A stretch of 12,176 bases of DNA from Armatimonadota bacterium. GTDB taxonomy: Bacteria; Armatimonadota; UBA10988. Position numbers and translations under genes: made by a program. Below, in pieces: positions 1 to 4,322 of this stretch (the stretch's first letter is position 1; each line of letters begins with the position of its first letter). The stretch lies in assembly GCA_016235455.1 (NCBI GenBank), contig JACRKZ010000157.1, positions 1 through 12,176 of the forward strand. Direction: 5' to 3'. A model generated the notes under the pieces. It had not been told where the DNA came from. It searched no databases and saw only the letters and a program-made list of their open reading frames with translations.

Positions 1-1164
1 GAGCCAGACGGTGAGGTGCAGCGTGCCGGCAAAGATCTGCGTGCTCAGGTCCAGGTTGGCCTGGTGCTCGCGGTCGGCACGGATCCAGCGCGCTCCGTAG
101 CCTCCCTCGAAGGTGCGGGCCTGGGTGATGCCGGCGAAGTCCACACTGCCCGGCGCGTCGAGCCCGGTGTAGTTCACGCTCGGGGTCCAACGCCGCCAGA
201 CTGGCTTCACGCCGGTCACGTCGGCGGCAGTGGTGAAGTCCGCGCCCGCTTCAATGGCGGCCTCGATGGGCCCGCGCGCCTTGGCCACGTCGAACACCTG
301 GCCATCCCAGAAGGTGTGCGCCAGCCCGGCGGTGACCAGCCACGGCGCCGGCGGCTGCGGGACCGGGGCCGGCGTCGACGGGCGCTCGAGGAGCGGTGCC
401 AGACGCTGCCGGGTGAGCAGCTCGGCCGCGGCCTCGTCGCCCAGCGCGCGCAGCATGGCCGCGGCCATGGCCAGGTGGCCGGCGTCGTTGGGGTGGACGA
501 AGTCGTAGGTCACATGGAAGTCCGGCCGGCCCTGCCGGCCCACGCGCAGCGCGTCGCGCATGGCCTGGTTGGTGGGGATGGCGATGGCGCCCAGCTCCCT
601 GGCCAGCGCGGCGGCCTGCTCGTTGAGCCGGTCGATGGCGGCGTTCTTGGGCGAGGCGGGATCCTCGGTGCACATCGTGGCGCTGGCCAGCGCCAGCGTG
701 CCGGGCGTGACGCGCGCGCGCAGCGCGGCGATCAACTGCCGGTAGCCGGCCAGCCAGTCGGCCAGCGACGCCGCGTCCTCGGTCACATAAGGCGACAGCA
801 CGTCGTTCATGCCGAGCATGATGACCAGCACGTCCGCCGGCCTGGCCAGCCCGGCCTGCACATCGACACCCTTGATGTCGAGAAACACGGGCTCGCGCCG
901 CGAGCGCTCCTCGACGTTGAGCCAACTGCGCACGCCCTGCCCACTGCCGCCCAGCGAGACGAGGTCGGGTTGGCAGCCGGGGTGGGCTTGGCGCAGCGCC
1001 CACTCGATCTGATGTGCCCAACCGCCCGCGGCATTGCGGCTCAGGCCGGTGATGCTGTCGCCGACGAACACCACGCGCGCGTTGCCGCCGCGCAGCAGAT
1101 CAGCGGCCTGGGCGGCGTGCAGTGCAACGAGCGCAAGCAGGGCGAAGAGGCGAATGCGGCGCAT
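1..1164 (-). CDS. Secreted SGNH/GDSL hydrolase with a C-terminal accessory domain (3' end outside window)
   Basis: Not in the ORF track because there is no stop in the window. Manual translation from ATG at 1164 (GGAG 8 nt upstream) gives signal peptide MRRIRLFALLALVALHAAQA, then SGNH block I VFVGDSIT, block II SLGGSG, block III MLGMND, block V DFVHPN. The frame stays open to base 1 (...GYGARWIRADREHQANLDLSTQIFAGTLHLTVWL). Confidence 0.9.
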   Translation of the reverse strand, partial: MRRIRLFALLALVALHAAQAADLLRGGNARVVFVGDSITGLSRNAAGGWAHQIEWALRQAHPGCQPDLVSLGGSGQGVRSWLNVEERSRREPVFLDIKGVDVQAGLARPADVLVIMLGMNDVLSPYVTEDAASLADWLAGYRQLIAALRARVTPGTLALASATMCTEDPASPKNAAIDRLNEQAAALARELGAIAIPTNQAMRDALRVGRQGRPDFHVTYDFVHPNDAGHLAMAAAMLRALGDEAAAELLTRQRLAPLLERPSTPAPVPQPPAPWLVTAGLAHTFWDGQVFDVAKARGPIEAAIEAGADFTTAADVTGVKPVWRRWTPSVNYTGLDAPGSVDFAGITQARTFEGGYGARWIRADREHQANLDLSTQIFAGTLHLTVWL

Positions 1165-1217
1165 GGCGTGGCTCCGCGCGGTAGTGTCCCATCGCCCGAT
1201 GGCCAGGTCAAGCGCCG

Positions 1218-2009
1218 CTAGACCAGCATTTCCACCTGGCTCACGGTGATCGCCTGGCCGCCCAGCAGGACGCGGTCGCCGTGGGCGGCGCAGCGCACCG
1301 TGCCGCCACGGGCGCTGAGCTGGCGGCCGACCAGCTCGACGCGGCCGAGCCGGGCCTGCCAGTAGGGGGCCAGCGCACAGTGCGCGGAGCCGGTGACGGG
1401 GTCTTCGTCGATGCCCATGCCCGGCGCGAAGTAGCGCGAGACGAAGTCGCTGTCCGGCTCGTCGGAGACCGCGGTGACGATGACCGAGCCGCTGGGCACC
1501 TGCGCCAGCCGCGCGAAGGTGGGCCGCAGATGGCGCACGGTGCTCGCGTCGGCCACCTCCACCAGCCAGCGGCAGTCGCTGCGGCCGACCCACGCGGGCT
1601 CCACGCCGAGCCCGGCGAACAGGGCCTCGGGCGCCGGCGTCTCGCTCACGGTGATGGCCGGAAAGTCCATGGCGATCCACGCGCCGTCTCGCCGACAGGT
1701 CAGCTCGCCGCTGCGCGTGGCAAACACGGCTGGTGCCTCAGCCGACAGAACGCCGGTCTGCCACAGGATGTGCGCGCTGGCCAGCGTGGCGTGGCCGCAC
1801 AGGTCGATCTCGGTCTGCGGTGTGAACCAGCGCAGCCGGTACCCTTGGCCCACGGGCGACAGAAACGCCGTCTCGGACAGGTTGAGCTCGCGCGCGACAA
1901 GCTGCATCCACTCGGCGCCGCGCTCCACGGGGAGCAGGCATACCCCAGCCGGATTGCCGCTGAACGGCTGGCTGGTGAAGGCATCGACGACATGCAGGCG
2001 GACACTCAT
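1218..2009 (-). CDS. PhzF family (YddE-like) isomerase/epimerase, 263 aa
   Basis: Motifs VDAFTSQPFSGNPAGV, ELNLSETAF (catalytic Glu), EIDLCGHATLA, EDPVTGSAH. Start moved to ATG 2009, which overlaps the upstream stop as ATGA. Confidence 0.93.
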   Translation of the reverse strand: MSVRLHVVDAFTSQPFSGNPAGVCLLPVERGAEWMQLVARELNLSETAFLSPVGQGYRLRWFTPQTEIDLCGHATLASAHILWQTGVLSAEAPAVFATRSGELTCRRDGAWIAMDFPAITVSETPAPEALFAGLGVEPAWVGRSDCRWLVEVADASTVRHLRPTFARLAQVPSGSVIVTAVSDEPDSDFVSRYFAPGMGIDEDPVTGSAHCALAPYWQARLGRVELVGRQLSARGGTVRCAAHGDRVLLGGQAITVSQVEMLV

Positions 2010-2965
2010 GGCGACAGGCTCCCTCGGCCGGGCTGGGTGCTTGACTGTAGCACGAGAAGGTCGGTTCGGCGCCCAAATCCGACCGCCTGCCAGAAGCGCG
2101 CGCCCTCGTCGTTGTCGGCGAACAGGAAGACGTTGCACTTGGCGATGCCCAGCTCGGCCAGGCTGGCCAGGCAACGCTCGACGAGCAGTCGGCCCAGGCC
2201 CTGACCGCGCTGCTCCGGCGCGACGGCCAGGTGGTGCAGGTAACCCCGCCGCCCGTCATGACCGCAGAGCACCGCGCCAATGACCCGCGCAACGGTGTCA
2301 GGAAGAACGGTGTCAGGGACCGTTTCGCTCACGAAACGGTCCCTGACACCGTTCTTCCTGTCACCGTTCCCGGAGACAGCTGCCCTGAGCACCAGGCTCA
2401 GCCCGGGGTTGCGCGCCAGGAAGGCGGCCAGTGGCGCGCGCTCGTCGCTCTCGTTGAGGCCCACGCCGTCGCAGGCGCGCCACAGAGCGACCACTTCGTC
2501 GTAGTCGTCCATGGTCAACGCCGACACGCTGGCGGTGGTCTTGGGGATCGAGGCATGCCCGCCGCCGTCAGCGCCAGGGTAGTTGCGCACGACCATGCCG
2601 ACCGACGGCATCATGCCGAGCCGCTGGTAGAAGCCCTGGAGTGCCGGATCGCAGGTCAGGTCCACCGCCGGCAGATGCGCAAAGGCCGTCAGCATGCGCC
2701 GCACCAGTTCGCTGCCGATGCCTCGGCCGCGATAAGCAGGAAGCACCTCCAGCAGGGGTATGAAAGCCGCCTGGACGCCATCGGTCAGGGCCGTGGCGAA
2801 GCCCACCACGCGGCCGGTCTGGTCATCGATGGCCAGCTGCGCCAGCGCGCTGCCGCGCAGGATGGCCAGATGCTGCGCCGGCGTGGGCACGCATCGCCAT
2901 CCCTCAAAGAAGCCGCCGAGCTGGTCCGGGCTGAGCTCGTCGGTGTGTGTCTGGTAGGTGATCAT
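2006..2965 (-). CDS. Tandem (two-domain) GNAT N-acetyltransferase; C-terminal domain YpeA-like with a 26-aa palindrome-derived insert
   Basis: Two acetyl-CoA binding motif A copies: VLPAYRGRGIGSEL and VAPEQRGQGLGRLL. The second domain has GHDGRRGYLHHLAV and DNDEGARFWQAVGF, typical of YpeA-like GNATs. Confidence 0.88.
   Translation of the reverse strand: MITYQTHTDELSPDQLGGFFEGWRCVPTPAQHLAILRGSALAQLAIDDQTGRVVGFATALTDGVQAAFIPLLEVLPAYRGRGIGSELVRRMLTAFAHLPAVDLTCDPALQGFYQRLGMMPSVGMVVRNYPGADGGGHASIPKTTASVSALTMDDYDEVVALWRACDGVGLNESDERAPLAAFLARNPGLSLVLRAAVSGNGDRKNGVRDRFVSETVPDTVLPDTVARVIGAVLCGHDGRRGYLHHLAVAPEQRGQGLGRLLVERCLASLAELGIAKCNVFLFADNDEGARFWQAVGFGRRTDLLVLQSSTQPGRGSLSP
2291..2368. repeat. 78-bp intragenic inverted repeat (REP/RPE-like hairpin)
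   Basis: Arms 2291-2327 and 2332-2368 (37 bp each) are reverse complements with one mismatch (T2298/T2361); loop CTCA. AACGGTGTCAGG is also directly repeated at 2291-2302 and 2306-2317. Confidence 0.95.
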
Positions 2966-2968
2966 GGC

Positions 2969-3454
2969 TCACTCAGTCACCGTCCGCACCACCCGAAACC
3001 CGCGCGCCAGGTAGTTGGGCAACGCGCGCGGGTGGTCCAGCGTGCAGGTATGCAGCCAGACACGGCGCGCTTCCCAGGCCCAGGCCGCGCGCACGGCCAA
3101 TGTCAGGAACGCGCCGCCCAGGCCCAGCCCGACGAACCGCGGCGCCAGGCCGAAGCTGGCGATCTCCACCTCGTCGCCCTGCCGTCGCAACTCGATGTAG
3201 CCCGCCGGCGAGCCGTCGTAGTAGCCCACCAGCGTACGCAGATCGGGCGATTCGGCGAACGCCGCCCATTCGTCGTCGCTCCACTTAAGCCGGTCGAACC
3301 ACTGCCAGTCGTGGCCCACCAGACAGTACAGGAAGTGGTTGAACCGCCATTGCGGCGCGAGTGCCTCGACCACCGTCAAGCGCGGGTCGGCCAGTTCCTT
3401 CGGTCGCAGGTCGTCGGGCGAGGTTTGTTCTAGATAGGTGATGGTGACAGGCAC
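2969..3454 (-). CDS. GNAT family N-acetyltransferase, 161 aa
   Basis: GTG start at 3454 with AGGAGG RBS just upstream. Motifs EIASFGLAPRFVGLGLGGAFL and RVWLHTCTLDHPRALPNYLARGF. Confidence 0.88.
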   Translation of the reverse strand: MPVTITYLEQTSPDDLRPKELADPRLTVVEALAPQWRFNHFLYCLVGHDWQWFDRLKWSDDEWAAFAESPDLRTLVGYYDGSPAGYIELRRQGDEVEIASFGLAPRFVGLGLGGAFLTLAVRAAWAWEARRVWLHTCTLDHPRALPNYLARGFRVVRTVTE

Positions 3455-3464
3455 GGCGCTCCTC

Positions 3465-4322
3465 CTACTTCGGCGCTTCGGTCGGCTGCGGCTTGGGGGG
3501 AACCTCGCTGAGCGCCTCGCCGCGGGCCCATTGGCCGATGACCGCCAGAAACGGCGCCGGCTCCTCGTGACCGTAGCCCCGCATGGCCAGCAGCGTGGAG
3601 TCGATCTTGCGGTTCTTGAGGCCGGCATCGGCGATGGCGAACATCAGCTCCCAGGTGCTCAGCGGCTTGTTGTCGGGCCGCGCGCGGTCGCCGACGATCA
3701 GCAGGAACCGGCACGGCTGCAAGGAGCCCTTCTGCAGCACGTTGGCCAGCATCGGTCCGGCGCCGCCTTCGAGCAGGAAGAAGGCGCGGAAGTGCTCCAG
3801 GATGAATGGATCCTGGCCAGCCAGCAGCACCGCGGTCGTGTGCGCGCCGTTGGAGAAACCGCCCAGCACGCTCCGCTCGGGCGTGATGTTCGGTACCGCC
3901 TCGAACAGCCGGCCCAGCATCGCGCGGTAGCAGCGGCTGATCACGCCGATGTCGTCCATGGACACCATCAGCCCGCCCGCGGGCTCGCCGCGGTCCATGT
4001 GGTCCTTGAACAGCGGCAGGCCGACACAGACGAAGTCCTTGTCGCCCACCACCGCGCGGCCGCGGTCGGGCCAGCCGCCGTCGCCGCCGTCGCCGCCCAG
4101 CAGGTAGACGAACAGCGGGAAGCGGCCCTCGGCGGTGTAGTTGGCCGGCAGCAGCGCGGTCATCTTGGCCGGCGCCTTCTTGCGCTGCGACATGGCCGTC
4201 AGCGTGTCGGGCAGGTCGGGGAACTCGAAGCTCAGTCGGGCGTTGGGCGTCGGCACCACCGGCTGGGCACAGGCCATGGTCACGCCGAGCAGCGCACCAG
4301 CCAGGATCAGGGCTCGTCGCAT
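3465..4322 (-). CDS. Secreted alpha/beta-fold hydrolase (esterase-like), 285 aa
   Basis: Signal peptide MRRALILAGALLGVTMACA; LPANY...FPLFVYLLGG strand typical of esterases; nucleophile elbow GFSNG (GxSxG); candidate catalytic His in GYGHE. Confidence 0.75.
   Translation of the reverse strand: MRRALILAGALLGVTMACAQPVVPTPNARLSFEFPDLPDTLTAMSQRKKAPAKMTALLPANYTAEGRFPLFVYLLGGDGGDGGWPDRGRAVVGDKDFVCVGLPLFKDHMDRGEPAGGLMVSMDDIGVISRCYRAMLGRLFEAVPNITPERSVLGGFSNGAHTTAVLLAGQDPFILEHFRAFFLLEGGAGPMLANVLQKGSLQPCRFLLIVGDRARPDNKPLSTWELMFAIADAGLKNRKIDSTLLAMRGYGHEEPAPFLAVIGQWARGEALSEVPPKPQPTEAPK

Follow-up and report, generated by a model that had tools for sequence, protein, structure and literature searches.

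How a palindrome of 78 nucleotides (nt) comes to lie in frame inside an acetyltransferase gene is the question raised by this locus. The window, a stretch of 12,176 nt, is the whole of one contig (C130) of a 6.5-Mb draft genome of an Armatimonadota bacterium, which is in 185 contigs with a G+C content of 69.3%. We put the probability at roughly 85% that the palindrome is a REPIN of a genome-wide REP family, lying in frame in a loop of a GNAT protein and likely mobilised by a RAYT.

The element occupies positions 2291-2368 and, as a palindrome, is assigned to neither strand. Sequence reading and repeat finding place its 37-nt arms at 2291-2327 and 2332-2368 around a 4-nt loop, with T2361 against A2298 as the sole mismatch. 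Each arm carries an internal duplication with a period of 15 nt, as AACGGTGTCAGG begins at 2291 and again at 2306, with mirror copies at 2342 and 2357. Both the dimensions of the hairpin and the duplication within its arms are as given in the original prediction. The inner part of the element consists of two REP units, AACGGTGTCAGGGACCGTT at 2306-2324 on the plus strand and its inverted partner at 2335-2353 on the minus strand, each with 0 mismatches to the master sequence of the family. The outer units are partial: AACGGTGTCAGG at 2291-2302 (plus) is a 15-nt-period duplicate of the head of the inner unit, and CCTGTCACCGTT at 2357-2368 (minus), in the other arm, bears the single arm mismatch. 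Mirrored outer partial units of the same architecture are found in the copies on contigs C131, C174, C18 and C66. Each REP unit is itself a small hairpin, with an AACGGT/ACCGTT stem and a GTCAGGG loop. The minus-strand RNA of 2270-2390 (121 nt) is predicted to fold at -84.7 kcal/mol, against -44.9 +/- 3.5 for 200 shuffled sequences, none of which folded as well (z = -11.3). No Rfam family matched this region at its gathering score, the only hits being to generic hairpins and far below it (mir-H1, for example, at 36 bits against 97).

On the minus strand the element is translated as NGDRKNGVRDRFVSETVPDTVLPDTV within an open reading frame (ORF) of 319 amino acids (aa) at 2006-2965. Translation of that ORF bears out the claim that the insertion is in frame, with the start and the end of the element exactly on codon boundaries. 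The element has a single sense frame free of stops among its three, namely the one used in the GNAT ORF. The reading frame survives because the length of the element is a multiple of three and because it is read in this only stop-free sense frame. The predicted tryptic peptide spanning the insert is FVSETVPDTVLPDTVAR. The ORF holds two GNAT domains, an N-terminal one being joined, with no stop between, to a YpeA/PA4534-like GNAT domain at 2006-2527 (minus) that carries the insert in its beta-hairpin turn. At 2512-2600 (minus) the first GNAT runs without a stop into the YpeA-like GNAT (…VVRNYPGADGG…); the G004 orthologue of the first GNAT (L010, G004:C81) has a stop right after VVRRY. Possible internal starts for the second domain are GTG 2527 and ATG 2512, and the locus is either a fusion of two GNAT genes or a pair in which the second begins at one of these starts. 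The database gene call for the contig is a 196-aa protein (P0002).

A further GNAT ORF lies directly upstream on the same strand (2969-3628, minus), and a PhzF-family ORF (1218-2009, minus; Pfam PhzC-PhzF, E = 1.3e-61) follows, its ATG overlapping the TGA stop of the GNAT as ATGA at 2006-2009. Over positions 1-3628 the minus strand encodes three GNAT domains, followed by PhzF and, after it, a GDSL-like lipase. The plus strand beyond carries an unrelated gene set, with a TPP-dependent oxidoreductase and an AMP-binding enzyme. A natural fusion of a GNAT-family domain with PhzF is found in P0224 (445 aa, from a record labelled Pirellulaceae). Such a fusion speaks for a functional tie between the GNAT and phzF.

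As the genome is a 185-contig draft, the hairpin could be a fold-back artefact of assembly or a chimeric join at a repeat. Nine sequencing runs, all non-RNA, hold part of the stretch; three of them (X1, X2 and X3) come from one study, possibly the source of the assembly, and X4 comes from an independent study. In the Logan contigs of X1-X3 the left flank reaches 2320 or 2327 and the right flank starts from 2339 or 2364, so that contigs extend 30-37 nt into the element from each side in all three runs. Within the element they break off, and no one record covers its full length, as an artefact would allow; no joint that skips the element was found in them. Against an artefact, a copy-specific 64-nt Logan record matches 2298-2360 exactly, the flank depths in X1 are equal (27.4 and 29.5), and both flanks are GNAT sequence in the right order and frame. 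The contig from X4 covers 2009-2300 and so includes no more than the first 10 nt of the element. A fold-back had been named in advance as a way in which the hairpin might prove spurious. The entry of contigs into the element from both flanks argues against it, making a fold-back unlikely, and with the further evidence an artefact of either kind is extremely improbable.

If the element is a mobile insertion, it should be missing from related proteins at the same site. A search of 5.8 billion proteins gave 4031 matches, with a best non-self identity of 66%. The query domain has 173 aa, whereas most of the top 120 matches measure 133-163 aa. In all 21 homologues taken from the matches and aligned, a gap of 28-29 aa falls exactly at the insert site, and the DNA of a same-family orthologue (G002) is 87 nt shorter at the insert point. 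A gap of about 26 aa had been predicted at this turn; its position was exact but its size was underestimated. The homologues run continuously across the site (LSLVLRxx-GRVVGAVLCG). Beside the element, the 9 nt at 2369-2377 (minus; GTCTCCGGG in mRNA sense, VSG in the protein) also have no counterpart in the homologues, and their origin is uncertain, as they could be native loop or belong to the element as a degenerate third tier. Since the nearest homologue is only 66% identical, the boundaries of the element are uncertain by about 9 nt. No orthologue match was found in the same-genus genome G001, which is 80% complete, and with the entire 319-aa ORF as query no further protein bearing this insert came up. 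At the same beta-hairpin turn P0126 (327 aa, 42% identical) carries an unrelated 20-aa tandem-repeat insert (…TAEQCGPRVTAEQCGPR…), which suggests, at the level of sequence, that this turn is permissive and recurrently so.

The motif was expected to be present in many copies in the genome, and it is. The core 15-mer of the repeat has 43 exact matches in 24 clusters, and AACGGTGTCAGGGACCGTT with up to three mismatches yields 77 units at 40 loci, comprising 31 inverted '+-' doublets, 3 triples and 6 solos. The units fall into two sub-types, GGGACCGTT and GGACCCGTT, and the spacers in the doublets are 10-17 nt. A degenerate pattern of the repeat has 73 matches in this genome (0-1 for a reversed-pattern control) and 0 matches in 40 related genomes, including the 80% complete G001, so the family is genome-specific relative to those 40. 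By a crude frame test, with 3 of the 40 loci passing as coding-like, the repeat is mostly extragenic. The family thereby shares with REP/REPIN-RAYT systems a short palindrome present in many copies in a single genome, the folding of inverted doublets into hairpins (for the window copy, with the z-score given above) and a mostly extragenic location. The description of the element as REP-like in the original prediction fits these short palindromic units and inverted doublets, and fits a RAYT-adjacent copy as well. Neither the GTAG nor the CGTC end tag that defines the two REP superfamilies in the literature occurs in the unit or its conserved flanks (RAGA-AACGGTGTCAGGGACCGTT-TTC).

The genome has three matches to Y1_Tnp, and only the one on contig C129 adjoins this REP. 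There the end of a REP triple and the start of a 227-aa Y1_Tnp ORF downstream of it are about 45 nt apart, with REP units on that side only. A RAYT/TnpA(Y1) gene had been expected near a copy, and the C129 gene fills that place beside a copy other than that of the window. The loop of the C129 upstream unit is inverted relative to the units of its relatives. Around the other two Y1_Tnp genes (C111:4188-4478 and C159:62884-63192) this REP is absent to a distance of about 1.5 kb, and they may serve other repeat families. The C129 ORF scores 41.9 bits with Pfam Y1_Tnp, above the cut-off of 23, and 62.5 bits with NCBIfam REP_Tyr_transpos, below the cut-off of 80. As a single sequence it has no match in the PDB at E <= 0.01. 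With a profile of 16 sequences, made up of this ORF and 15 relatives, the best solved structure is that of E. coli TnpArep (4er8_A, E = 8.8e-7). Throughout the profile H60-W61-H62, which forms the HUH motif, and Y122 do not vary, and they align to the HUH motif and tyrosine helix of 4er8; a C-terminal region of about 100 aa is extra and conserved.

The same hairpin motif accompanies related RAYTs in other genomes. In 15 of 80 related RAYT loci, whose record titles are mostly Planctomycetota or Nitrospira, GGTGTCAGG/CCTGACACC is present, 27 times in all, where shuffled sequence gives a mean of 3.4 and a maximum of 10. Nine loci have a copy 42-58 nt upstream of the start, and eight have an inverted one at the stop or up to 35 nt beyond it. 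The REP stems vary by genome (AAAAAGG/CCTTTTT versus AACGG/CCGTT) and the loop is kept. Among the genomes of these loci, G042 holds 55 copies of the hairpin motif, mostly doublets, and four others hold 3-7 each. On C129 (L014 1373-1400), as in the related loci L034, L039, L049, L052 and L066, a conserved TTCTTGAC follows the REP unit upstream of the RAYT and may represent the -35 box of the promoter of that gene.

The RAYT is flanked by the same REP, as in known REP/REPIN-RAYT systems, with flanking on two sides in the related loci only. Given that REP units adjoin the C129 RAYT on one side only, their proximity might be coincidental and the element a MITE of a DDE transposase or another element independent of RAYTs. 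This is very improbable, as the hairpin motif stands at fixed distances on both sides of related RAYTs (15 of 80 loci) and the element has neither terminal inverted repeats around unrelated internal sequence nor a target-site duplication. Inspection of the flanks in the window revealed no direct repeat abutting the element, in line with the earlier claim that no duplication is visible, and the element is built throughout of REP units arranged as a palindrome; a MITE of a DDE insertion sequence would carry a target-site duplication and terminal inverted repeats inherited from its parent, and the element shows neither. Association of the REPIN with the RAYT remains the preferred reading.

Further in-frame copies were anticipated, and one more was found. 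The crude coding test, applied to all 40 loci, called for an open frame spanning the element and coding-like GC3 on both sides; it flagged the window copy (C130), a copy on C183 and a solo unit on C178. The C183 copy is a 75-nt REP triple that encodes NGVRDRFRRAKTVPDTVFRSVPDTA in frame in a 600-aa ABC exporter, where it lies in the inter-domain linker between ABC_membrane (23-288) and ABC_tran (372-521). This segment is absent in 4 of 4 aligned homologues, including a same-genus orthologue at 61% identity, and the homologues have a shorter proline-rich linker in its place. In both the GNAT and the ABC exporter, then, homologues lack the segment at the same site, as for a mobile insertion. The C130 and C183 copies are translated in the same frame of the element. 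At neither of the two coding sites was a target-site duplication found, nor do the sites share a target motif.

The remaining contacts of the repeat with ORFs are less clear-cut. An exact solo unit at C178:41275-41293 lies in a YfhO-like membrane-protein ORF, in a region whose length varies among orthologues and which is shorter in this genome. On C129 (L014 240..1400) the ORF of a GT4 glycosyltransferase enters the REP triple and ends inside it (…ERCQGPFSLAETVPDTVLRKRSLTPFS*), and the annotated C-terminus of that protein may be derived from the repeat. Among 37 loci of the same REP type in G042, the crude frame test placed 0 doublets in a frame that looked coding; a solo 13-mer, in an ORF whose GC3 is coding-like, was set aside as probably a chance match.

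The predicted fold of the host protein appears little disturbed by the insert. The window GNAT matches Pfam Acetyltransf_1 (E = 1.7e-24) and has both the fold and the acetyl-CoA motif of the GNAT family, with RGQGLGR kept. In the PDB matches 4ubr, 5ib0 and 2pdo (YpeA among them), query residues 7-48 and 75-161 align with contiguous chain residues. Because the match to NCBIfam PRK03624 is split by the insert, it scores 76 bits, below the cut-off of 124. AlphaFold2, run on an alignment of 22 rows, gave a model with a mean pLDDT of 83; by 10-residue blocks, residues 1-50 and 81-130 average 92-98 and the insert (51-80) averages 48-56. The model places the insert between strands E45-48 and E82-90, and its best Foldseek match is PA4534 (4ubr_A; TM 0.89 normalised to the target). 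The modelled protein is thus probably an intact GNAT fold with an extra, disordered, hydrophilic loop of about 29 residues.

The insertion could instead have freshly inactivated the GNAT gene. Under this scenario the REPIN killed the gene, which is now a young pseudogene with its frame intact through recency and a one-in-three chance of phase. Consistent with that, a terminator-like hairpin lies within the ORF, the start of the second GNAT is ambiguous and the ORF is fused to the upstream GNAT. However, the window protein retains all 31 columns that are invariant across the 22 aligned sequences, and pLDDT exceeds 90 in the predicted core fold. The position of the insert at a hairpin turn, where P0126 has its unrelated 20-aa insert, also speaks against inactivation, as does the second in-frame case in a linker, a pattern expected if purifying selection filters insertions. 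Recent loss of the gene is on balance unlikely, though it deserves serious consideration. From the alignment and the model, we read the insertion as probably a tolerated passenger and not an adaptation.

It is likewise possible that the hairpin has been retained as a regulator. An intrinsic-terminator-like pattern, a 20-bp stem followed by a TTCTTCCT tail, occurs at 2308-2351 on both strands. As the stem and tail match the pattern of a terminator, the element could plausibly affect both phzF and the distal half of the gene. An attenuator, terminator or RNase barrier at this position might then set the GNAT:PhzF ratio, in keeping with the very stable fold, the overlap of the GNAT stop with the phzF start as ATGA and the GNAT-PhzF fusion P0224. 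Retention for such a role is quite improbable, given that the same element is scattered over 40 unrelated loci, that no relative has the element at this site, and that the T-rich tail is paired within the longer hairpin.

An insertion of the REPIN that the protein tolerates is therefore the scenario we favour, and it likely arose in a stepwise manner. The REP family would have multiplied in this genome, with the C129 RAYT-type HUH/Y1 transposase most likely mobilising it in trans. The element would have moved as single-stranded DNA and inserted without a target-site duplication; single-strand transposition by Y1 enzymes is not expected to leave one. One copy would then have entered the turn between two beta strands of the YpeA/PA4534-like GNAT. 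Selection would subsequently have kept only those coding insertions that were in frame, free of stops and placed in a loop or a linker. Whether as RNA or as single-stranded DNA, the element would form a very stable terminator-like hairpin, and the 3' half of the gene and the coupled phzF may be expressed less as a result.

The palindromes of the family often reach beyond the conserved unit. In 21 of 34 doublets the palindrome extends at least 6 nt past the unit and up to 29 nt, against a null rate of about 1.1%; outer stems of up to 27-29 nt are found, for example, at C144:51862-51909, C131:44556-44603 and C88:80172-80221. The extensions are locus-specific and almost always perfect, and some outer stems are alike across loci. 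The flanks of the GNAT copy are complementary at 20 of 40 positions, with 11.5 +/- 3.0 expected (p about 0.008). Compensatory change between the arms of REPINs has been published (Bertels and Rainey 2011, PMC3116915), and the portions of that paper available to us do not discuss perfect locus-specific extensions of such length. One tentative and rather doubtful explanation is that copying within the hairpin keeps the arms of a REPIN identical while the palindrome grows outward into host sequence; alternatively, insertion might prefer the centres of quasi-palindromes. If true, either process would write new, symmetric and frame-compatible coding sequence inside genes, and would explain both the 9 nt at 2369-2377 and why the ABC exporter has its linker replaced.

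The locus offers a clean case, from an uncultured groundwater organism, of a RAYT-associated repeat that makes new peptide in two unrelated proteins. The REP type involved is outside the published GTAG/CGTC scheme and is marked by its GGTGTCAGG loop, which recurs beside related RAYTs in records labelled Planctomycetota, Nitrospira and others. A search of the literature for the motif strings found no related paper. The locus also carries a warning for annotation, since such inserts depress the scores of family models, as with the GNAT below its NCBIfam cut-off. Together, the GNAT and the ABC linker provide a natural pair of proteins for gauging the tolerance of loop insertions.

Among known systems, Rickettsia palindromic elements (RPE) are palindromic repeats that lie in frame in coding genes and add a peptide at a permissive site; RPE-1 is longer than the element described here. 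The comparison with RPE made in the original prediction holds as an analogy for in-frame coding insertion, and the likeness goes no further, as the organism differs, kinship in sequence is not expected and a cognate RAYT is identifiable here. The C129 RAYT resembles the TnpA of IS200/IS605 and E. coli TnpArep (4er8) in that the HUH motif and catalytic tyrosine align. Unlike TnpArep, to which its similarity is distant and detected by profile only (E = 8.8e-7), it has the extra C-terminal region of about 100 aa.

The closer precedents are REPINs and intragenic REPs. As far as the accessible text of Bertels and Rainey (2011, PMC3116915) goes, REPIN-RAYT systems share with this family inverted doublets that form hairpins, compensatory changes in the arms, restriction to a lineage and a RAYT beside the REP. 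The REPINs analysed there are those in extragenic space, whereas 2 of the 40 loci here are in frame inside genes, and the family here has very short spacers (10-17 nt) and locus-specific outer palindromy of up to 29 nt. A nearer parallel than RPE is found in the intragenic REP dimers and grouped repeats, tagged with GTAG and CGTC and encoding 20-30 aa, that are described in the consulted sections of Di Nocera et al. (2013, PMC3733652). Those sections present them as a minority of an otherwise intergenic, tyrosine transposase-associated family and suggest that they are neutral, since they lie in linkers or loops that are flexible. The element here is likewise a dimer inside an ORF, at a linker or loop site, with an associated tyrosine transposase. 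It differs from the REPs in those sections in lacking a GTAG/CGTC head, its conserved part being the hairpin loop GGTGTCAGG, and its hosts are a GNAT and an ABC exporter whereas DNA repair and replication genes are emphasised there. Intragenic REP dimers are, so far as these sections go, already described in other bacteria in that paper; the REP type found here is modestly new.
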